Of a stretch of DNA of 64,000 nt, positions 2,596 to 64,000 are shown in pieces; positions within the stretch are counted from its first letter, which is position 1; every line of letters starts with the position of its first letter. Location of the stretch: the NCBI GenBank assembly GCA_963732875.1, contig CAVTBD010000001.1, positions 20,780-84,779 on the forward strand. The letters run 5' to 3'. The notes under the pieces were generated by a model, which was not told where the DNA came from, ran no database searches, and saw only the letters and a list, made by a program, of their open reading frames with translations. Position numbers and translations under genes: made by a program. Origin of the DNA: an uncultured Alphaproteobacteria bacterium (GTDB lineage Bacteria; Pseudomonadota; Alphaproteobacteria; SMXQ01).

Positions 2596-3678
2596 GTGGC
2601 CGTGGCCGCTCTCGCCATTGCGGTAATGATGGGCTTCGCAGGACCCGCCAGCGCCGCGGACCTGCCCAAGGCGACGCAGGACATTCTCGCACATATGAAG
2701 CTGAACGCCTCCGTGCTCGACGGCCTTGACCGGGAACTCGCCGTTCCCGAGGCCTGGATCGACGGCGCGAAGAAGGAGGGCGTGGTTCGCATGGTCTCGA
2801 CCTTCGACACCGCGCAGTACCGCAAGCTGATCCGGCCGTTTCACGAGCGCTACCCGTTCATCAAGGTCGAGTACAACCGGTCGTCCTACCAGCAGCGGGT
2901 CACCAACGTCCTCATTTCCTACAAAGAAGGCCGCTACACGACCGACGTCGTCAGCAGCTTCGGCGGCGGCATCGCACTTTTCCGCAAGGCGAATGCCCTG
3001 GTGGACCTCAGGAACCTGCCCGGCTACCAGAACATGGACGCCAAATCGCGCAGCCCGGACGGCTTCTGGATCGGCTACCGCCGTCAGTACTTCTGCACTG
3101 CCTACAACACCAACCTGGTCAAGAAGGCCGACCTGCCGAAGAAGTGGACCGACATCCTCGACAACCCGGCGTGGCGGAACGGCAACCTCGCCGTCAACAA
3201 CTTGCCCCAGGTGTGGCTACTGCCGCTGTGGGGCACGTATGGGGAAAGCTATGTCCGGGATTTCGTTTCCCGGCTGTTCGACAACGTCAAGCCGCAGGTC
3301 CGCAAGGAAGGCGCCAATGCCATGGTGGGGCTTACCGTCGCCGGTGAATTCCACATGGCCATCCCCGCGTCGGGCGCGCGCACCTACCAGATGCTTCAGA
3401 AGGGTGCGCCCATCGGGTTCCACTGTCCGGAACCCGTGCCCACGCTGGTGGCCGGTATGGGCATCGTGCGTGGCAACCCGCACCCCAACGCGTCACGCAT
3501 ACTCGTGAACTGGTTCGTGTCCAAGGAGGGCCAGGCGGCGTTCTATTCGGCGACCTTCTCGCCGCTCGCGCACAAGGACCTGCAGAGGCGCGAATCTTGC
3601 TGGCCGGACACTATGAGACCTGAGGGGGCGTCCACGCAATCTCAATCAATATTTGTATCTTTATTACCTATTATATAA
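2596..3678 (+). CDS. ABC transporter periplasmic substrate-binding protein (family-1 SBP, iron/thiamine-type fold)
   Basis: Signal peptide AALAIAVMMGFAGPASAADLP followed by an SBP-like sequence. GTG start. The C-terminal ~30 aa look aberrant. Confidence 0.55.
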   Translation: MAVAALAIAVMMGFAGPASAADLPKATQDILAHMKLNASVLDGLDRELAVPEAWIDGAKKEGVVRMVSTFDTAQYRKLIRPFHERYPFIKVEYNRSSYQQRVTNVLISYKEGRYTTDVVSSFGGGIALFRKANALVDLRNLPGYQNMDAKSRSPDGFWIGYRRQYFCTAYNTNLVKKADLPKKWTDILDNPAWRNGNLAVNNLPQVWLLPLWGTYGESYVRDFVSRLFDNVKPQVRKEGANAMVGLTVAGEFHMAIPASGARTYQMLQKGAPIGFHCPEPVPTLVAGMGIVRGNPHPNASRILVNWFVSKEGQAAFYSATFSPLAHKDLQRRESCWPDTMRPEGASTQSQSIFVSLLPII

Positions 3679-3933
3679 TCCGCCTGGCGCAAGAGCAGCG
3701 GCGAAGGCGAGGAAAAGACTGTTTCCGTCAAGGTCGAGGCCGTCAAGAAGGGGGGCCGTGAGGTCACCTTTATGACCGCCGGCAAGAAGGGGAGCGTCGG
3801 CATCAGCGCCCGGAGCACGAAAGTCACGGTCAACGGCAAGCCCGTCCGCCGCACCTCGTTAAAGCCCGGCATGACCTGCGACGTGACCTACCACGGTAAC
3901 GGTAGCCAGGCGAGCGTGATCGCCTGCAAATAG
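3679..3933 (+). other. Small ORF fragment (~53-84 codons), in the same frame as and immediately after the SBP stop; no good start codon
   Basis: ...KTVSVKVEAVKKGGREVTFMTAGKKGSVGISARSTKVTVNGKPVRRTSLKPGMTCDVTYHGNGSQASVIACK*. Preceded by an anomalous AT-rich junction at 3640-3676. Confidence 0.2.
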
Positions 3934-40685: not shown

Positions 40686-41627
40686 TCAGGGTGGGGGAAA
40701 GGGCCAAGTGCTTCGCGGTCGCGGTCGCGGTCGCGGCGACTCGTCGCGCTGGCGGGCCCGGCCGAAGCCGTGCAGAGCCTCGGGCTCGGCACCAGCAGCG
40801 ACAAGCCGATCCAGGTCTATGCCGACAACGGGATCGAATGGGACCAGAACACCCACCGCTACATCGCACGCGGCAACGCCAAGGCGATCCAGGGCACCAC
40901 CACGGTCTACGGCGACACGCTGATCGCCTATTACGAGGAAATGAAGGGCGGCAGTACCGAGGTCTACCGGCTCGACGCCCTCGGCCATGTGCGCATCCTG
41001 TCGCCTACCGAAACCGCCTACGGGCAGAAGGCGGTCTACGACGTGCGCAACGGCGTGCTGGTGATGACCGGCAACAACCTGAAATTCGTGTCCCAGAGCG
41101 AAATCATCACGGCGCGCGATTCGCTCGAGTATTACGAGAACAAGAGCCTGGCGGTGGCGCGCGGCAACGCCGTCTCGAAACCCGTGAAGAAGCCGGGAGC
41201 ACCCCCTTCCAGCAACGACCGCACGGTGCGCGGCGACGTTCTGACGGCGCATTTCGAGGACAACGACAAGGCCGGCGCGTCGAAGGCCGGTACCGGTACC
41301 AAGCCGAAGCCGAAGAAAAAGGCGGCAAAGGACGGGGCGTCCGGCAGCGGCAACTCGATCGACCGGCTCGACGCCTACGGCCACGTGGTGGTCACCCGGC
41401 CCGGCGAAGTGGCGATCGGCACCCGCGGCGTCTACTTCCCCAAGACCGACATCGCCAACCTGTGGGGGCAGGTCAAGATCACCCGGGCCGACAACCAGCT
41501 CAACGGCGAGTTCGCCGAGGTCAACTTCAAGACCGGCATTTCCCGCCTTCTTTCGGGCCGCAAGGCACCGGTCCAGGCCCTGATCGTACCCAAGGAAAAG
41601 CCAAAAAATCCGCAGCCGGGCAATTAA
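40682..41627 (+). CDS. lptA: LPS export periplasmic protein LptA, with an apparent 1-nt indel in the signal-peptide region (~40739)
   Basis: ATG 40682 (ATGA overlap with lptC) gives MIRVGERAKCFAVAVAVAA. The mature OstA-like protein (LVALAGPAEA|VQSLGLGTSSDKPIQVYADNG...) is in the next frame. Removing one base restores a perfect Sec signal peptide. Confidence 0.8.
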
Positions 41628-41669
41628 CTCTTCACTAAAAAGCAAGAATTAGGCCAATAATAGAGGGTC

Positions 41670-42470
<801 letters not shown>

Positions 42471-42497: not shown

Positions 42498-44036
42498 ATG
42501 GTTCTCGCTCCCAAACTCGCCCTTCGGCAAACCACGGCGCTCGTGATGACGCCGCAACTGCAGCAGGCCATCAAGCTGCTGCAGCTGTCGAACATGGAAC
42601 TGTCCAGCTTCGTCGAAGGCGAGATCCAGGAGAACCCGCTGCTCGAGCGGGAAGATCCGGAAGGTGGCTTCGAGGGCACCGAGGCGACGGCCGACGACAG
42701 CACGGAGGGCGGCACCGAGGGTGCCGCGGGCGAGGACGGCGAACCGCGCGATACCGCCGATCTGTCCGCCGACGAGCACATGCCCGACGCGGCCGACGCG
42801 CCCCTCGATACCGACTACGAGAACGTCTGGACCAACGACGAGCGCGGCGGCGCCGACGAGCGCCCGCCCGAACAGTTCGCCGACTGGGGCGGCGGCGGCG
42901 GCGGGGGCTTCGACGGCGAAGGGCCGTCCCTCGAAGAGCGGCTTTCCGGCACCGAGTCCCTGCGCGACCACCTGAGCTTCCAGATCAACGTCGAGATCGC
43001 GGCGCCCGCCGACCGACTGATCGCCGCGGCGCTCACCGACGGGCTCGACGACGCCGGCTACCTCACGGTCACGCTGGCCGAAGTGGCCGACCGGCTCGGT
43101 ATCGACATCACCCGGGTCGAGGCCGTGCTGGCCAAGGTGCAGCGCTTCGATCCGGCCGGCGTCTATGCCCGCGATCTGGCCGAATGCCTGGCGCTCCAGC
43201 TGCGTGACCGCGACCGGTTCGATCCCGCCATGGCGGCGCTGATCGCCAATCTCGACGCGCTCGCGCGGCGCGACATCCCCATGCTCAGGCGCGTCTGCCA
43301 GGTGAACGACGAGGACCTGTACGAAATGGTGGCCGAGGTGCGCGCGCTCGATCCCAAGCCGGGTATCGCCTTCACCGCCGACGTCGCCCAGGCGGTGGTG
43401 CCGGACATCCTGGTGCGCGCGCGTGCCGACGGCGTCTGGCAGCTCGAGCTCAATGCCGACACCCTGCCCCGCGTGCTGGTCAACCAGAGCTACTACGCCG
43501 AGGTGCGCGCCGCCGCCCGGACCAAGGCCGAACGCGACTACATCTCCGACCGGATGGCCTCGGCCAACTGGCTGGTGAGGGCCCTGCACCAGCGCGCCAC
43601 CACGATCCTCAAGGTCGCGAGCGAGATCGTGCGCACCCAGGGCGACTTCTTCTCCAGGGGCGTGCAATACCTGAAGCCGCTCACGCTGCGCGACGTGGCG
43701 GACGCCATCGGCATGCACGAATCGACCGTGAGCCGCGTCACCTCGTCCAAGTTCATGGCGACGCCGCGGGGCGTGTTCGAGCTCAAATATTTCTTTACCG
43801 CGGCGATCGCGTCGAACAATGGCGCCGATGCCCATTCCGCCGAATCGGTACGTCACCGGATCCGCGCCCTGATCGAGCGAGAAACCCCCAAGTCGGTGTT
43901 GTCCGACGACAAGATCGCGTCGATCCTGTCGCGGGAAGGAATCGATATCGCGCGCCGCACGGTCGCGAAATACCGGGAAGCGCTGCACATACCATCATCG
44001 TCCCAGCGCCGTCGCGAAAAGGCCATAAGCCTTTAA
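42498..44036 (+). CDS. rpoN: RNA polymerase sigma-54 factor
   Basis: N-terminal LALRQTTALVMTPQLQQAIKLLQLSNMEL and C-terminal RpoN box ARRTVAKYRE. Confidence 0.95.
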   Translation: MVLAPKLALRQTTALVMTPQLQQAIKLLQLSNMELSSFVEGEIQENPLLEREDPEGGFEGTEATADDSTEGGTEGAAGEDGEPRDTADLSADEHMPDAADAPLDTDYENVWTNDERGGADERPPEQFADWGGGGGGGFDGEGPSLEERLSGTESLRDHLSFQINVEIAAPADRLIAAALTDGLDDAGYLTVTLAEVADRLGIDITRVEAVLAKVQRFDPAGVYARDLAECLALQLRDRDRFDPAMAALIANLDALARRDIPMLRRVCQVNDEDLYEMVAEVRALDPKPGIAFTADVAQAVVPDILVRARADGVWQLELNADTLPRVLVNQSYYAEVRAAARTKAERDYISDRMASANWLVRALHQRATTILKVASEIVRTQGDFFSRGVQYLKPLTLRDVADAIGMHESTVSRVTSSKFMATPRGVFELKYFFTAAIASNNGADAHSAESVRHRIRALIERETPKSVLSDDKIASILSREGIDIARRTVAKYREALHIPSSSQRRREKAISL

Positions 44037-44326
44037 CCCAAGAGATTCTTTGTTATAAATCAATGGGTTGATATTATGCCCCAGTTCTATTGACTTTCGG
44101 TGCCGCTGCGACATATGGTGCGCGCACCGCGAACGGCGGGATCGCGATCGCGATCGCCCGAGGTAGCAATACGAGGCGTCGGCGAGGCACCGGCGGCCAG
44201 GGCGAAAGCGACAATGGGAAGCCAGAGACGGGGACAATCGAACCCAGTACAGGCACCGGAACCGAGCCGCCTAATTTCCACGGACAGACAAGGCCGCGCG
44301 GCACAGATCCAACGAAGGACTTGGCA

Positions 44327-55724: not shown

Positions 55725-55732
55725 GCATCCCC

Positions 55733-56386
55733 ATGGCGATCGCGGTCAAGATCTGCGGCATCAATTCCGAAGCGGCGATGGCCGCCGCCGTGAGCCACGG
55801 TGCCGCCTACGTCGGGCTGATGTTCTACCCGCACTCGCCGCGCTTCCTCGGCCTCGCCGAGGCGGCCGAGCTGGCGGCGCTCGTGCCCGCCGGCGTGAGG
55901 CGGGTCGGCGTGTTCGTGGACGCACCCGAGGACGTGATTGAGGACACGCTCGAGGCGGTGCCGCTGGAGGCGCTCCAGTTCCACGGGCACGAGACAACGG
56001 ACCAGATCACTTCGGCCCGCGACCGCTTCGGCCTGCCGGTGATCCGCGCGGTCAAGCTCGCCGGGCGCGACGACCTCGCCGCCGCGGCCGCATTTGAGGA
56101 TGCTGCCGACATGATCCTGTTCGACGCCAAGCCGCCCTCCGGCATGGCTTACGCGCTGCCCGGCGGCAACGCGCTCAGCTTCGACTGGGACCTGCTCGCC
56201 GGCTATCGCGGCCGCAAGCCGTGGATCCTGTCGGGCGGCCTGCGCGCCCAAAACCTGGGCGAGGCGGTCGCGGTGACCGGCGCACACATGGTGGACGTAT
56301 CCTCGGGCGTCGAGACCGCCCCCGGCGTCAAGGACCCCGAGCTGATCGCGGCGTTCCTCGCCGCCGCCCGGGCCATCGACGGGTAG
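55733..56386 (+). CDS. trpF: N-(5'-phosphoribosyl)anthranilate isomerase
   Basis: MAIAVKICGINSEAAMAAA...LSGGLRAQNLGEAV. Confidence 0.85.
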   Translation: MAIAVKICGINSEAAMAAAVSHGAAYVGLMFYPHSPRFLGLAEAAELAALVPAGVRRVGVFVDAPEDVIEDTLEAVPLEALQFHGHETTDQITSARDRFGLPVIRAVKLAGRDDLAAAAAFEDAADMILFDAKPPSGMAYALPGGNALSFDWDLLAGYRGRKPWILSGGLRAQNLGEAVAVTGAHMVDVSSGVETAPGVKDPELIAAFLAAARAIDG

Positions 56387-56388
56387 GC

Positions 56389-58008
56389 GTGGCCGGGCGC
56401 GACGCCGTTCTCAACGAGGCGCGCGCGGCGCTGGCGCGCGGGCAGTACGACCGGGCCGCCGATATCCTCAGGCCGCTTGCCGAATCGGACGGCAGTGCGG
56501 CTCTGGCGGCGGGGTTGCTGCGTGCCCGCGCGCTGCGCGCGGCCGGCCACATGACCGAGGCGATCGAGGCGCTCCAGCCGGTGCTGGTCCGTGCCGATGC
56601 TGCCGGCGACGTCGCGGCGGCTGCGGGCGGGCTCGCCCAGCTCGGGCTCATCTCCCATCGTCTCGGCGCGAAGGACGATGCTGCGACACTATTCGGTCAG
56701 GCGCTCACCCTCGATCCCGCCCAGCCCGAGGCGGCGGCGGGGCTTGCCCGTCTCCATGCGGAGGCCGGGGACTTCGATGCCGCCCGCGCGGTGCTCGGCC
56801 GCGCGCTCGCGGCAGCACCGGACTCCCCTGAGCTATTGACCGCGCGCGGCACGGTTCTGGCCGACGCTGGCGATCCCGCCCAGGCCGAGGCCGATCTGCG
56901 CCGCGCGCTGGCGCGCGCGCCCGACGCCGGGGAGGCGCACTCCAACCTTGGCAACGTGCTGCGCGACAGGGGCCGGCTCGCGGAGGCGCGGGACTGCTAC
57001 GACCGTGCCCTGGAGCTTTTGCCGGAGGGCGCGCCCGATTATCCCCGCGCCCGGGTCAACCGGGGCGTCGCCTGCCTGATCGCAGGCGATCTGGCCGCGG
57101 GCTGGGACGACTACGAATGGCGCCTGCGCCTGCCCGAAGCGCGCGATACGCGTCTGCTGCCGCCGGCGTGGACCGGCGACGATCTTTCCGGGCGCACCGT
57201 GCTGCTCTACGCCGAGCAGGGCGTCGGCGACGTGATCATGTTCGCGACGCTGGTGCCTGAGATCGCCGAACAGGCGAAGCGCGTGATCCTGTGGGTGCCG
57301 GAACGGCTGCAGGCGCTGCTGGCCCGCTCCCTGCCCGGCTGCACGGTGACGACCGACCCTGGCCCAACCACGCCGTGCCATGAGGCCGACGTCGCCCTCG
57401 CGCTGGGATCGCTGCCGCGCCTGCTGCGCCCCGACGCCGACGCCTTTACCGGCACCGGCCCGACCGAACAACAGCCGTTCCTGGTCGCCGATGCCGCCAA
57501 GGCTGGCGCGTGGCGCGAACGTCTGAAAGCCGCGACCGGCGGCGCGCCCGCCATCGGCCTTTCCTGGCGCGGCGGCGCGACCCACTGGGACCGCAGCTTG
57601 CGCGCGAGCGGCCCCGACGACTGGCGCGAGCTGCTGGCCGCGCCCGGCACGCACTGGGTGCCGCTGCAATACGGCATGACCGAAGACGAGCGCGCGGGCT
57701 TCGCCGCGCTAGCGCCCGGCCGGTTCCACGCGTTCGACGGTACCGGCGCCGACCTCGACGGGCTCGCGGCGCTGGCCACCGCGCTCGACCTCGTGATCTC
57801 CATGGACAATTCGACGGTACACGTCGCCGCCGCGCTCGGCCGCCCGACCGTTACCTTGGTACCTCACGTACCGACCTGGCGCTGGCAGCTCGACGGCGAC
57901 CAGAGCCCCTGGTACCCGACCATGATGCTCGCCCGGCAGGCGCCCGGAACCCCTTGGCGAGACGTGATTTCCGGGCTATCGCGGCTGGTCGCGCGGCGGA
58001 CGGCGTAA
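56389..58008 (+). CDS. TPR-repeat protein with C-terminal GT9 (heptosyltransferase)-like domain, inserted between trpF and trpB
   Basis: GTG start. TPR repeats (AEADLRRALARAPDAGEAHSNLGNVLRDRGRLAEARDCYDRALEL). C-terminal VLLYAEQGVGDVIMFATLVPE...ISMDNSTVHVAAALGRPTVTL. Confidence 0.65.
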   Translation: MAGRDAVLNEARAALARGQYDRAADILRPLAESDGSAALAAGLLRARALRAAGHMTEAIEALQPVLVRADAAGDVAAAAGGLAQLGLISHRLGAKDDAATLFGQALTLDPAQPEAAAGLARLHAEAGDFDAARAVLGRALAAAPDSPELLTARGTVLADAGDPAQAEADLRRALARAPDAGEAHSNLGNVLRDRGRLAEARDCYDRALELLPEGAPDYPRARVNRGVACLIAGDLAAGWDDYEWRLRLPEARDTRLLPPAWTGDDLSGRTVLLYAEQGVGDVIMFATLVPEIAEQAKRVILWVPERLQALLARSLPGCTVTTDPGPTTPCHEADVALALGSLPRLLRPDADAFTGTGPTEQQPFLVADAAKAGAWRERLKAATGGAPAIGLSWRGGATHWDRSLRASGPDDWRELLAAPGTHWVPLQYGMTEDERAGFAALAPGRFHAFDGTGADLDGLAALATALDLVISMDNSTVHVAAALGRPTVTLVPHVPTWRWQLDGDQSPWYPTMMLARQAPGTPWRDVISGLSRLVARRTA

Positions 58009-61079: not shown

Positions 61080-62373
61080 GTGCTCCGGCGCCTCACGGCG
61101 CTGCATCCCAGGACGATCGACCTTTCCCTCGGCCGGATCGAGCGGCTGCTGGCCGCGCTCGGCCATCCCGAACACCGACTGCCGCCGGTGATCCACGTCG
61201 CCGGCACCAACGCCAAGGGCTCGGTGGTGGCCTACCTGCGCGCCATGTTCGAGGCATCGGGACAGCGCGTCCACGTCTACACCTCGCCCCACCTGGTGCG
61301 CTTCCACGAGCGCATCCGCGTCGCCGGGCGACTGATCACCGAACGCGCTCTCGAACAGGCGCTGACCGAGTGCGAGCGCGCCAATGCGGGCGAGCCAATC
61401 ACTTTCTTCGAGATCACTACGGCGGCTGCGTTCCTCGCGTTTTCGCGCACCCCCGCCGACGTCACCCTGCTCGAGGTCGGGCTCGGCGGCAGGCTCGACG
61501 CCACGAATGTGATTACCCGCCCGCGCGTCACCGCGATCACGCCCATCGCCATGGACCACCAGCATTTCCTCGGCGACACGCGCGCCGCCATCGCCGGCGA
61601 GAAGGCGGGAATCCTCAAGCGGGCCGTGCCCTGCGTGGTCGGACCCCAGGATGCCGTGGCCGCGCGCGTGATCGCCCAAGCGGCACGCAAAACCGGCACG
61701 CCGCTGATCCGGCTCGGCACGGAATTCCGTGTCACCCGCGCCCGCGACGGGGCGCTGCGTTACCGCGACGGCGACGGCACTATCCGCTTTCCCGCCCCGG
61801 CGCTCGCCGGTGCGCACCAATACGCCAATGCCGCGACTGCGATCGCCGATCGCCCGCGCGTTCGGACGCGGCGCGCCCGGCGACGATGCGATCGCGCGAG
61901 GGCTGACGGAGGTGGACTGGCCGGCACGGCTGCAACGCCTCGGCGCGGGCCGGCTCACCGCGCCGCTCGCCGCGCGCGGCTTCGAGGTCTGGCTCGACGG
62001 CGGGCATAATCCCCACGCCGCCCGCGCGCTGGCACGGACGCTCGCCGGTTGGGACGCCGGGGCGCGGCGACCGCTCTATCTCGTCACGGGCATGATCGAG
62101 AGCAAGGATCCGAAGGGGTTTTTCAGGGCCCTGACGCCGCGCGTGACAGCCGCCTGGTGCGTGCCGGTGCCGGGCGAACATGCCGCCATCGCCGCCGATG
62201 TGCTCACGCGCACTGCGCGGGACGCAGGTTTGCGGGCGCGCGCCGCGGCATCCCTCGAGGCCGCCCTCGAGGCCGTCGCCCGGCGCCGGCCGGGACGCGT
62301 CCTGATCGCAGGCTCGCTCTACCTCGCCGGCGCCGTGCTGGCGGCCGAGGGCCGCGCCGCCAAGCCGCGCTGA
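61080..62373 (+). CDS. folC: Dihydrofolate synthase/folylpolyglutamate synthase, with an apparent frameshift from a 7-bp tandem duplication at 61841-61854
   Basis: N-terminal (HVAGTNAKGS P-loop) in ORF 61026..62009. C-terminal (...GGHNPHAARALA...) in ORF 61729..62373. GATCGCCGATCGCC at the junction. Confidence 0.85.
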
Positions 62374-62395
62374 ACCGGAGCCCGGCTTCCCATCC

Positions 62396-62437
62396 GTAAA
62401 AAATGGAACCGGCGCGGACCCCGAAGGGCCGCGCCGG
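62396..62437 (-). terminator. Rho-independent terminator of small-peptide cassette 1 (also downstream of folC)
   Basis: Minus strand CCGGCGCGGcccttcggggtCCGCGCCGG followed by TTCCATTTTTTAC. A near-identical hairpin lies at 63434-63467. Confidence 0.6.
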
Positions 62438-62486
62438 CTCGATCATATCCGCCGCGCAGACGCGCAGGGCGGGCAATGAAGCGTGA

Positions 62487-62666
62487 CTACTCGTTGTCGC
62501 CGGAGTCTTCGCTCGGAGTGAGCGGGTTGTCCCCCTCGTTATCGCCGGGGTAGGCCGAGGCGTCGTCCTGATAGATCGCCTTGGCGGCGTCATTGGTGAC
62601 GGCCGCGAAAGCCGGGGTGGAAAGGGCGACGAGAACCGTCATCACGGTCATCAGCGTCTTGGTCAT
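62487..62666 (-). CDS. Small secreted acidic peptide (59-aa precursor), paralog 1
   Basis: SD GGAGA. MTKTLMTVMTVLVALSTPAFA|AVTNDAAKAIYQDDASAYPGDNEGDNPLTPSEDSGDNE. Confidence 0.55.
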   Translation of the reverse strand: MTKTLMTVMTVLVALSTPAFAAVTNDAAKAIYQDDASAYPGDNEGDNPLTPSEDSGDNE

Positions 62667-62739
62667 CTGTGTCTCCATAGGAGTGTTGCGGCGGTTCTCC
62701 CGTCGCTTCCGGCCGGCAGGGCCGCGTCGGATTTCCACA

Positions 62740-62900
62740 AAATACGCGCCACAGTAAAAAAATCAATTCAACAAACGATGTTCACGGAGATTTGAAGTAG
62801 ATCATACATTTATGCAACAGCTTACATCGAAAATGCGTGATATTTATTGAGAAGATCTCGTGCCATTATTTAAACAAACTGTGGCGTGATTTGGACAAAC
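62740..62900. promoter_or_regulatory. AT-rich upstream region of peptide gene 1 carrying ATTTATGCAA / TTACAT motifs
   Basis: About 70% AT over 160 bp in a 68% GC genome. Motifs at 62808-62829 are shared with cassette 2. Confidence 0.4.
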
Positions 62901-62912
62901 GGGCCGCCCCCC

Positions 62913-62945
62913 GGAATCGAAAGGCCCCGCCGATCGGGCGGGGCC
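62913..62945 (-). terminator. Rho-independent terminator downstream of trxA
   Basis: Minus strand GGCCCCGCCcgatcGGCGGGGCC followed by TTTCGATT. Confidence 0.55.
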
Positions 62946-62971
62946 TCGTGACAGCGGATGGACGCGGCCGG

Positions 62972-63292
62972 TCAGATCACCGACTCGACCCATTCCATCA
63001 GGGCGCTCTTGGGCGCGGTGCCGACCTTGGTGCCGGCCACCTGGCCGTTCTTGAACAGGATCAGCGTGGGGATGCCGCGCACGCCGTACTTGGACGGGGT
63101 CTGTGGATTGTTGTCGATGTTGACCTTGGCAATGGTGAGACGGCCGCCGAACTCCTTCGCCATCTCCTCGAGCACCGGGGCGATCTGCTTGCACGGACCG
63201 CACCACTCGGCCCAGAAATCCACCAGCACCGGCCCCGGCGCGCTGAGCACATCCTTGTCGAAGCTGGCGTCGGTCACTTGCGTCAAACTCAT
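62972..63292 (-). CDS. trxA: Thioredoxin
   Basis: WCGPC active site, 106 aa. Confidence 0.95.
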
Positions 63293-63433
63293 GGTCTTCC
63301 CCTATGTGCTGTTATGGAACTCCGGCCACGTCGGCGGCGAGTCTAGAGGGGCGCGGGAGGCGAGGTCAAGCAAGCCCACCGGGCCATCGAAGTGCTTGGA
63401 TATGGTGGCTTTTGCAGCGTCAGCAAGGGCCCG

Positions 63434-63467
63434 AAATGGAACCGGCGCGACCCTATGTCGCGCCGGC
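63434..63467 (-). terminator. Terminator of small-peptide cassette 2 (same family as 62396-62437)
   Basis: AAATGGAACCGGCGCGAccctatGTCGCGCCGGCTCG. Confidence 0.5.
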
Positions 63468-63552
63468 TCGTAACAGGCTGGCGGGTGGTGGAACATCATC
63501 GCGGGGAAACGGTCCGCCTCCCGATCACCACCCGTGCGCCGGTGCGATCGGT

Positions 63553-63723
63553 CTAGTCGCCGCCGCCGCCGCCGCCACCCTCACCCTCGCCGGAGGGCTG
63601 CTCCGGCTGGGCAGCGCCCTCGTCCTGGTGAACGGTGCCCTGATGATCGCCGGTGATCGCCGCGAAGGCGGGCGTGCTCATCGCGAAAAGGACGGCAAGC
63701 GCCGCCGCAATTTTCTTGCTCAT
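63553..63723 (-). CDS. Small secreted acidic Gly-rich peptide (56-aa precursor), paralog 2
   Basis: SD GGAGCA. MSKKIAAALAVLFAMSTPAFA|AITGDHQGTVHQDEGAAQPEQPSGEGEGGGGGGGD. Shares the STPAFAA(V/I)T(N/G)D junction with paralog 1. Confidence 0.5.
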   Translation of the reverse strand: MSKKIAAALAVLFAMSTPAFAAITGDHQGTVHQDEGAAQPEQPSGEGEGGGGGGGD

Positions 63724-63789
63724 GACGTGCTCCTTGGGGTTCTGGTTGCACCGCTCTTCGCGGTGCGTCCGGCAGCGAACTGTCGCGCC

Positions 63790-63950
63790 GAACGTGAAAA
63801 ACTCTACGCGCTCCCCTTAAAAGGGCAAAATGAACAATTATGATTTGTTTATGGTTATTTTGTGGAACGGCCATAATTTATGTAAATTCTTGAGTTTTTA
63901 CATAAGAAGTAAAATATACGTTATGTAAATACCCTATGTCTTTTTAGGTC
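63790..63950. promoter_or_regulatory. AT-rich upstream region of peptide gene 2 with three copies of TTATGTAAAT / TTTACATAA
   Basis: aatttatgtaaat (63875-63887), tttacataa (63897-63905, inverted), ttatgtaaat (63921-63930). Confidence 0.4.
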
Positions 63951-64000
63951 CCGACCTGCGCACCATCGAGCATGGCATCGGGCAAGGCGATCAGCCGGGG

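Follow-up and report, generated by a model that had tools for sequence, protein, structure and literature searches.

Introduction

Hydrophilins are a compositional class of proteins (Gly content above 6%, mean hydrophilicity above 1) and not a homologous family. Here we describe two small genes, designated pep1 and pep2, in a 64-kb stretch of DNA from an uncultured alphaproteobacterium (hereafter the window). Each gene encodes the precursor of a short acidic peptide, and the cassettes that contain them (W1, or cassette 1, ~62905-62398; W2, or cassette 2, ~63945-63434; both on the minus strand) flank trxA; related loci are given L-numbers. After removal of the signal peptide, both window peptides fall within the hydrophilin limits and are predicted to be disordered. 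However, some members of their family miss one of the two limits (3% Gly in L012; grand average of hydropathy [GRAVY] -0.74 in L013), and Pfam and NCBIfam revealed no sequence similarity to any named hydrophilin or small acidic periplasmic stress protein.

A second comparison is provided by the Phr pro-peptides of Bacillus, which are likewise encoded by tiny genes and in which a Sec signal and a short hydrophilic, unstructured remainder together make up ~40-60 aa. In contrast to the Phr systems, no cognate Rap/RNPP gene adjoins the pep genes, the host is Gram-negative, and the sequences are unrelated. Searches of Pfam, NCBIfam, PADLOC, PHROGs, and PDB gave nothing above threshold. Weak alignments, mainly in the signal-peptide region, were obtained with Pfam DUF7096 and NCBIfam ExtJ, BRANT, and YjdP over the N-terminal 31-48 residues; however, the best DUF7096 score was 18.6 bits (cut-off 27), and the other small secreted families scored 12-15 bits (cut-offs 35-90) with no similarity over the rest of the mature part. 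PADLOC gave no matches and PHROGs matches had E values of 0.095-0.33, so that the peptides matched no model of a phage or anti-phage defence protein.

A preliminary description of this DNA had proposed two paralogous small-peptide cassettes around trxA, and these are present with the features described, on the minus strand. Our analysis supports a true paralogous relationship between the two gene cassettes, each of which comprises a promoter, a leader, a secreted acidic peptide, and a terminator. They belong to a small, narrow, uncharacterised secreted-protein family found only in one uncultured alphaproteobacterial group.

pep1 and pep2 are conserved protein-coding genes and old paralogues

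The two coding sequences (CDS) are located as follows.

62487..62666, minus strand: pep1 CDS, 59 aa plus stop; signal peptide 62666-62604, predicted mature acidic peptide 62603-62490
63553..63723, minus strand: pep2 CDS, 56 aa plus stop; signal peptide 63723-63661, predicted mature acidic Gly-rich peptide 63660-63556

The pep1 product reads MTKTLMTVMTVLVALSTPAFA up to the predicted cleavage point and continues with AVTND; that of pep2 reads MSKKIAAALAVLFAMSTPAFA and continues with AITGD. Reading frames are kept in the metagenomic orthologues (L001-L010, L012-L014) and in one metagenome-assembled genome (MAG; L011), and all length differences are multiples of three. Orthologues of pep1 are 85-90% identical, with a ratio of nonsynonymous to synonymous substitutions (dN/dS) of 0.24-0.58 and a G+C content at third codon positions (GC3) of 0.86; those of pep2 show in-frame indels and a dN/dS of 0.17-0.49. 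Pairwise dN/dS values were 0.15-0.58. GC3 was 0.82-0.86, with GC3 > GC1 > GC2, the same pattern as in bona fide genes of the window, and the Shine-Dalgarno (SD) sequence GGAG is found 6-8 nt ahead of the ATG in every member. The two open reading frames (ORFs) are real genes under purifying selection. Because frame and selection are both maintained, conservation of the intergenic DNA alone in relatives, which had been named beforehand as the result that would speak against the genes, is not what was found.

The DNA of the two cassettes has low overall identity, with similarity confined mainly to the GCGCGTA -10 region, the leader, the signal-peptide codons, and the terminator. Synonymous divergence (dS) between pep1 and pep2 was 1.33, a saturated value. 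Thus, the cassettes are old paralogues and not the result of a recent duplication.

It is conceivable that the ORFs give no functional product and that the locus consists of small RNA genes or structured intergenic repeats, or that the hydrophobic N-terminus is the uncleaved membrane anchor of a type I toxin-like peptide. Such a reading draws on the leader and terminator, which are more conserved than parts of the ORF, and on the N-terminus, which is modelled as a single long helix. It is opposed by the purifying selection on the frame, the in-frame indels and gene-like codon-position GC, the strong SD at correct spacing in every member, and an A-x-A site conserved in 30/30 members; the acidic, Gly-rich tail is, to our knowledge, unlike known type I toxins. 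We consider it highly improbable.

The suggestion that both genes were likely unannotated is not supported: protein sets derived from the NCBI/ENA record already contain the two peptides in exact form, and homologues at NCBI and JGI carry the label "hypothetical protein" and no other (JGI; NCBI MGE0650150.1, "Alphaproteobacteria bacterium"). Several members are mis-called. P0035 is a 91-aa call running from an upstream TTG through the leader (L019 10001-10276), the tails of P0034 and P0016 are frameshifted, and the 131-aa call P0018 is chimeric. The mis-started and frameshifted calls illustrate the inconsistent annotation of this family.

The products are predicted to be exported, acidic, and disordered

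The N-terminus of the precursors shows canonical n, h, and c regions with A-x-A. The features of Sec export and signal peptidase I (SPase I) cleavage, i.e., M-x-K, 12-14 hydrophobic residues, and S-T-P-A-F-A↓A/S, were found in 30/30 members. The junction STPAFA↓A(V/I)T(N/G)D is common to both window peptides, as originally reported. Neither a Cys lipobox (lipoprotein, SPase II) nor an RR pair in any n-region (twin-arginine translocation) occurs in the 30 members. No Cys occurs in either window peptide or in any of the 30 mature parts; the single Cys of P0010 lies inside its signal peptide (LCAMS), outside any lipobox context.

The predicted mature parts are indeed short and highly acidic: 38 aa, charge -9.2, and 3.9 kDa for pep1, and 35 aa, charge -7.0, and 3.3 kDa for pep2. 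Gly content is 8% in pep1 (GRAVY -1.20) and 34% in pep2 (GRAVY -1.17). Across the family, predicted mature peptides have 27-40 aa, a net charge of -1 to -10, no Cys or Trp, and sparse His. In the 30-member alignment, K3, P18, A21, and Q33 are invariant. After the signal come 0-8 variable residues and then the invariant Gln, in (V/I)(V/I)(Y/H/F/Q)-Q-(E/D)(E/D); the C-terminal part consists of a Pro/Gln/Glu stretch and a Gly/Glu/Asp tail, always with a final D or E. AlphaFold, supplied with this alignment, modelled a helix for residues 2-31 only, with a predicted local distance difference test (pLDDT) score of 53-59 for the remainder; this low confidence fits an intrinsically disordered product.

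Sequence searches of Pfam, NCBIfam, and PDB matched neither peptide to any Ca- or metal-binding family. The pep1 subfamily, and only this subfamily (window ~62555-62520; L012), contains a conserved stretch D-x-[DE]-x-[DQ]-N-P-[LM]-x-P-S-E-D that loosely resembles a 12-residue EF-hand loop (positions 1, 3, 5, 8, and 12). Pfam and NCBIfam gave no support for this stretch. The metal or Ca binding suggested in the preliminary description gains no support from these results but is still conceivable.

The peptides could instead be exported signalling pro-peptides of the Phr kind, from which a short fragment is released after export and sensed and in which the acidic tail or the VIYQEE motif is the signal. 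Their size (49-61 aa), Sec-type signal, and hydrophilic unstructured remainder are in keeping with this possibility, as are a short conserved motif within an otherwise fast-evolving mature region and regulated-looking promoters of their own. However, no receptor, Rap/RNPP-type, or peptidase gene is adjacent in any locus, the neighbours being housekeeping genes, and we know of no established Phr-like peptide signalling in Alphaproteobacteria. Signalling appears improbable.

A shared box in the AT-rich upstream regions

Both genes are preceded by AT-rich regions.

63807..63945, minus strand: AT-rich upstream region of pep2, starting right after the addA stop codon; three TTTACATAA boxes, a CCACAAA-type repeat, and proximal element AAATCATAATTGTT; conserved in L005, L008-L010, L011, and L022
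62745..62905, minus strand: AT-rich upstream region of pep1; degenerate box TTGCATAAAT (62817-62808) and element AAATAATGGCA; conserved in L001-L004

The unusual AT-richness first noted for these regions was confirmed: the GC of 100-nt segments falls to 0.27-0.35 at 62750-62899 and 63800-63949, vs. a window average of 0.688. Low upstream GC is kept in most loci, at 0.25-0.36 in 11/14 and 0.44-0.49 in L008, L009, and L012. A 32-aa plus-strand ORF is present inside the W2 region (63830-63928); by inspection, its start and stop are not preserved in the aligned relatives.

The word TTTACATAA occurs three times in cassette 2 (63929-63921, minus; 63897-63905, plus; 63886-63878, minus) and nowhere else in the 64 kb. 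In a local first-order Markov control, at least three copies of any 9-mer appeared in such a 150-bp AT-rich stretch in ~2% of simulations, and the box copies are thus not expected from local composition. Across both cassette positions and all lineages, no other 8-10-mer is shared as widely as the 9-10-mer ATTTACATAA (reverse complement TTATGTAAAT), and the box word is the top repeat in three divergent lineages. Copies of ATTTACATAA number four in L022, three each in W2, L005, and L011b, two in L010, and one each in L011a, L012, and L014; both copies in L008 and in L009 are mismatched, and L019 has the variant TATACATAA. Irrespective of orientation, all copies are at positions -149 to -219 relative to the ATG. 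Outside these upstream regions, ATTTACATAA is absent from the window and from ~115 kb of related loci (~180 kb in total). L012 retains the box though the surrounding DNA has drifted to 0.49 GC; in W1 and its close relatives, TGTTGCA(T/G)AAATG is kept while the flanks vary.

The preliminary description placed one motif in both upstream regions, attached to it a TTACAT partner, and ascribed control of both copies to a shared regulator. Three motif copies in mixed orientation are present in cassette 2; cassette 1 has only the degenerate TTGCATAAAT, and the partner (minus strand, GATGTAAG) shows no conservation in close relatives. The idea of a shared regulator fares likewise: it agrees with conservation of the box across lineages and at both cassette positions, and is weak for W1. 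A shared, sequence-specific upstream cis-element is plausible. Since a discrete 9-10-mer is conserved while its flanks drift, generic nucleoid silencing would be less likely than a site-specific factor.

Alternatively, the promoters may be strong and essentially constitutive, the AT-rich DNA being no more than an UP element, curved DNA, or a generic target of a MucR- or GapR-like nucleoid protein, and the ATTTACATAA words being a by-product. Box number, spacing, and orientation are variable, mismatches occur in both boxes of L008 and L009, the W1 lineage has only a 2-mismatch variant, a conserved proximal element occupies the UP-element position, and low GC itself is kept in most loci, all of which would fit such promoters. 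Constitutive expression is nonetheless unlikely in our judgement, though it is the rival to be taken most seriously, because the same 9-10-mer persists in L012 in surroundings of 0.49 GC, recurs as top repeat in lineages far apart, and is missing from the other AT-rich islands of the window. The strongest of these islands (1216-1355; minimum GC 0.30) has a TTGACT/TAGAAG promoter-like pair followed by very AT-rich ATTATCAGAAATAAAAATAATTTATCAAAATATAATAAATAAGGAG, ahead of a gene starting at 1372, and contains neither a ATTTACATAA box nor the leader described below. Further islands at 43996-44120 (just after an RpoN-like C-terminus), 41581-41680, and 3596-3725 carry no box.

A literature search on the box sequence and on comparable small acidic periplasmic proteins found nothing relevant. 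Known regulator sites were compared by eye, and word or spacing did not fit for sigma-54 -24/-12, EcfG GGAAC-N16-CGTT, RpoH, CtrA TTAA-N7-TTAA, FixK/FNR, the Irr iron control element, Fur/Mur/Zur boxes, PpsR TGT-N12-ACA, NifA TGT-N10-ACA, IHF, the DnaA box, PhoB, TyrR, or dif. An OmpR-like half-site (TTTACAT) is nearest in word only and fails on architecture. Half-site words of TyrR (box TGTAAA-N6-TTTACA) and of dif (XerD arm, TTATGT(T)AAA) are identical or near-identical to ATTTACATAA/TTATGTAAAT; however, both sites failed on architecture. Dyad spacing in W2, L005, and L010 is N10 and not the N6 of TyrR, L011b has direct repeats, L022 has three direct copies and one inverted, and direct-repeat periods are 12-13 bp. 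Unlike dif, the boxes have no 6-bp central region with a XerC arm.

Putative promoters

Between the boxes and the leaders, the following promoter elements were located.

63801..63806, minus strand: putative pep2 -10 TAGAGT, within conserved GCGTAGAGT; 16-nt spacer to the -35
63828-63823, minus strand: weak pep2 -35 TTGCCC, inside the AT-rich region
62739..62744, minus strand: putative pep1 -10 TATTTT (TAGATT or TAGCTT in close relatives), aligning positionally with the cassette-2 -10
62766-62761, minus strand: pep1 -35-like TTGATT; 16-nt spacer to the -10

GCGTAGAGT is invariant in six cassette-2-type loci. A TAnnnT hexamer occurs in all cassettes at a fixed 77-82 nt from the ATG; the cassette-1-type -10 takes the form TATTTT, TAGATT, TAGCTT, CATAAT, or AAGTAT. 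The -10 of trxA is TAGACT, and TAGAnT thus appears to be the -10 flavour of this host. From these elements we infer sigma-70-type promoters and transcription start sites for both cassettes. The cassette-2 type has a conserved proximal AT-rich element, AAATCATnATTGTT(T/C), immediately ahead of the -35, and this element could be similar to an UP element or an activator site.

A conserved leader with two hairpins

Each putative transcript begins with a leader (5' untranslated region).

63721..63799, minus strand: pep2 leader; hairpin HP1 63793-63767, hairpin HP2 63766-63748, AAC, C-rich spacer, SD GGAG 63733-63730
62664..62738, minus strand: pep1 leader; HP1 62731-62708, HP2 62706-62688, AAC, CUCC-UAU-GGAG mini-hairpin over the SD (62683-62673)

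The leaders are ~70 nt long, and 8/8 folded leaders form HP1 and HP2 as consecutive, GC-rich hairpins; the folding z-score of the pep2 leader was -3.3. HP2 shows double compensatory changes at 3/7 pairs; after it come an invariant (GC)AAC, a pyrimidine-rich spacer, and GGAG. Leader divergence was far below dS (W1-L004, 0.042 vs. 0.257; W2-L005, 0.027 vs. 0.262; W2-L010, 0.34 vs. 0.78), and the pep1 leader is 89-96% identical to those of close relatives with dS of 0.24-0.26.

A covariance model (R1) built from 13 leaders gave scores of 71.6 bits for the pep2 leader and 71.1 bits for the pep1 leader. It recovered leaders that were not used for training in L022 (47.8 bits), in L019-L021 (33.8 bits; different genomic context), and in L015 and L016. 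R1 found a leader ahead of every family member and nothing else convincing in 180 kb. With Rfam, only tRNAs passed the gathering threshold in the window, and nothing relevant was obtained at E < 10 in 62300-64000, which includes the leaders, AT-rich regions, and terminators.

Among described leaders, ompA-type 5' stabiliser hairpins are similar in that the pep leaders have consecutive hairpins upstream of a strong SD. In the pep1 type, the CUCC-UAU-GGAG stem (4 bp) covers the SD and can mask it, as in the ROSE and fourU thermometers; this stem is absent or weak in the pep2 type. Unlike ROSE and fourU, the pep1 stem has 4 bp only and is still predicted at 42°C, and no Rfam match was found at E < 10. 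Predicted W1 structures were unchanged from 15 to 42°C; because the stem is predicted to persist over this range, a thermometer role is not indicated. The leader may stabilise the mRNA or tune translation initiation.

Terminators

Both cassettes end in hairpins with a stem in common.

63434..63470, minus strand: pep2 terminator; hairpin GAGCCGGCGCG-loop-CGCGCCGGTTC, then CATTTCGGG (weak T-run)
62398..62441, minus strand: pep1 terminator; hairpin GAGCCGGCGCGG...CCGCGCCGGTTC, then ATTTTTT; found in part by a terminator scan

Exactly two copies of the 16-mer CGCGCCGGTTCCATTT are present (62401-62416 and 63434-63449; 0.14 expected from shuffles, none of which reached 2). This word is exclusive to the two terminators, in agreement with the common hairpin proposed after each cassette. 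Cassette 1 has the form of an intrinsic terminator, with an ~11-bp stem followed by AUUUUUU; cassette 2 has this form weakly, the same stem being followed by the tail CAUUUCGGG with 3 U only. Every lineage retains the CCGGCGCG/CGCGCCGG stem; L011 and L015 show compensatory changes in it.

Locus organisation and stability

On the minus strand, the order is the addA 3' end (stop codon 63946-63944), cassette 2, trxA, cassette 1, and the convergent folC 3' end (ending at 62373). Beyond folC are accD, trpA, trpB, trpF, pyrF, sppA, rpsA, and aroA. Identity of accD to Rhizobiales and Rhodobacterales chromids is only ~70%. The intervening gene has its own signals.

62972..63292, minus strand: trxA, thioredoxin, with a WCGPC motif in the translation; the L015 orthologue has PF00085
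63369-63364 to 63340, minus strand: trxA promoter from a promoter scan, TTGACC (63369-63364), 18-nt spacer, TAGACT ending at 63340
62922-62946, minus strand: trxA terminator, an inverted repeat

The order tsaE-APH-NTP transferase-addB-addA-pep-trxA-pep-folC (convergent)-accD-trpA in L011, L015, L016, and L018 is that of the window. L022 has the addA-side copy only, with trxA and folC 58 bp apart, and the copy of L013 adjoins folC and has cassette-2-like features. In L019-L021, a member with the same leader and terminator is located at an unrelated locus flanked by genes for a cytochrome c and a methyltransferase. Because leader and terminator travel with the gene in these loci, the whole unit from promoter to terminator was duplicated and relocated.

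The relocated cassette of L019-L021 and the copy number of 1 or 2 around trxA might suggest that the cassettes are remnants or modules of an element that uses Xer recombination (a dif module, or an integrative mobile element exploiting Xer), or of another mobile element, inserted on both sides of trxA. TTATGTAAA equals the XerD-arm core of dif in B. subtilis and E. coli. The XerD-arm-like word TTATGTAAA occurs at window 63878-63930 and at L022 9781-9840. The distal W2 box copy reads AAGAAGTAAAA-TATACG-TTATGTAAATA and is loosely dif-like; its left arm is not conserved in L005. Against the mobile-element hypothesis, no 11-6-11 dif architecture accompanies any box, and the close relative L005 does not keep the best candidate for a XerC arm. 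No conserved partner arm was found for a dif/XerCD site, and the cassette has no such site at its terminator end. Terminal inverted repeats and target duplications are absent, PADLOC and PHROGs gave no matches above threshold, and the only nearby recombinase is a xerC/D-like integrase ~7 kb away in L019, within conserved housekeeping synteny. Position is stable across lineages with saturated dS. Mobile-element hallmarks, the presence of which had been set in advance as a counter-indication to the cassettes, were therefore not found, and with no terminal repeats, duplications, or recombinase in the window and a stable position we reject this origin, to which we assign only a very slight chance. 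A 10-bp repeat ACCCTATGTC (63450, 63931) and a 12-bp inverted match TTCCACAAAATA were also considered; relatives do not share them, and their occurrence is at, or close to, chance expectation.

Two further features of the locus were observed. No terminator hairpin is present between the addA stop codon and the pep2 promoter (63946-63801), so that read-through from addBA would enter pep2 and halt at the pep2 terminator, which may serve both. Farther away, ~1.6 kb (55725-57340) separates pyrF (end 55724) from the trpF/trpB block. Because pyrF and trpF abut in syntenic L015 and L022, this stretch is extra in the window; it holds a high-GC3 ORF (56203-56658, minus strand) without a Pfam match.

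Distribution of the family

A profile search of 1.84 billion cluster representatives gave 15 matches, about 11 of which are true small relatives, and a word-seeded profile search found about 34 clusters (90% identity) among 5.8 billion proteins. Members have 46-68 aa, apart from fused or mis-started calls. No family member has a Pfam domain, and no NCBIfam model exists for the family. Scans with the family alignment found one locus in the genome collection (L011) and one in metagenomes (L014). L011 belongs to the MAG Dino_bin8 (WHSO01000055), which its authors placed near Magnetospirillum (PMC8067395). A MAG from fossil bone is the source of one member.

Discussion

The upstream, leader, and terminator sequences are constrained, and the predicted product is disordered and acidic. 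We consider that pep1 and pep2 are probably two ancient paralogues of a clade-restricted small-protein gene, each forming a complete monocistronic unit with a regulated promoter, a leader, and an exported polyanion. Transcription would start from a sigma-70-type promoter (weak TTGnnn -35, 16-17 nt spacer, TAnnnT -10) below ~130 bp of AT-rich DNA, the proximal part of which (AAATCATnATTGTT) may act as an UP element or activator site. The distal part, with 1-4 ATTTACATAA boxes, would most likely be bound by a sequence-specific regulator controlling both copies together. In the transcript, the ~70-nt leader (two hairpins, AAC, pyrimidine spacer, GGAG) would stabilise the mRNA and tune initiation, and the hairpin terminator would form the end. 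The product is presumably a Sec/SPase I pre-peptide whose 21-aa signal is cleaved after AFA, releasing into the periplasm or medium a Cys-free, intrinsically disordered polyanion of 27-40 aa (~3-4 kDa for the window peptides). This could act as a hydrophilin-like periplasmic polyanion in cation buffering or in the envelope/osmotic stress response, and the conserved VIYQEE-type motif might dock it onto a partner protein.

Several points weigh against this interpretation. Cleavage of the signal peptide was judged by inspection and not with a trained predictor. The TTGnnn hexamer 16-17 nt upstream of the -10 is weak and variable. W1 lacks an exact box, TTGCATAAAT being a 2-mismatch variant, and co-regulation of the two window copies is therefore uncertain. 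Box spacing and orientation differ between lineages, which fits monomeric or independent sites and also a non-specific AT-rich architecture. No EF-hand or other metal-binding signature is common to the whole family, and the proposed role in cation buffering or envelope/osmotic stress is speculative, essentially a guess.

A bolder version, which we put forward tentatively as a possibility well short of even, is that of a self-contained, clade-specific, undescribed module: a dedicated factor acting on ATTTACATAA boxes, together with a new leader RNA (two hairpins and GCAAC, not in Rfam), would control secreted polyanions that act as cation buffers, mineral- or ion-binding agents, or modulators of envelope sensors.

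The pep family consists of orphan hypothetical proteins of uncultured organisms with no link to a known pathway, and the wider impact of the finding is limited for this reason. The box and the leader are its most testable novelties, and concrete ones. Abundant periplasmic polyanions under dedicated control, if this is what the peptides are, would be a protein-based counterpart to the known anionic periplasmic solutes, and the cassettes would also provide a compact promoter-leader-terminator module for a poorly known alphaproteobacterial lineage.

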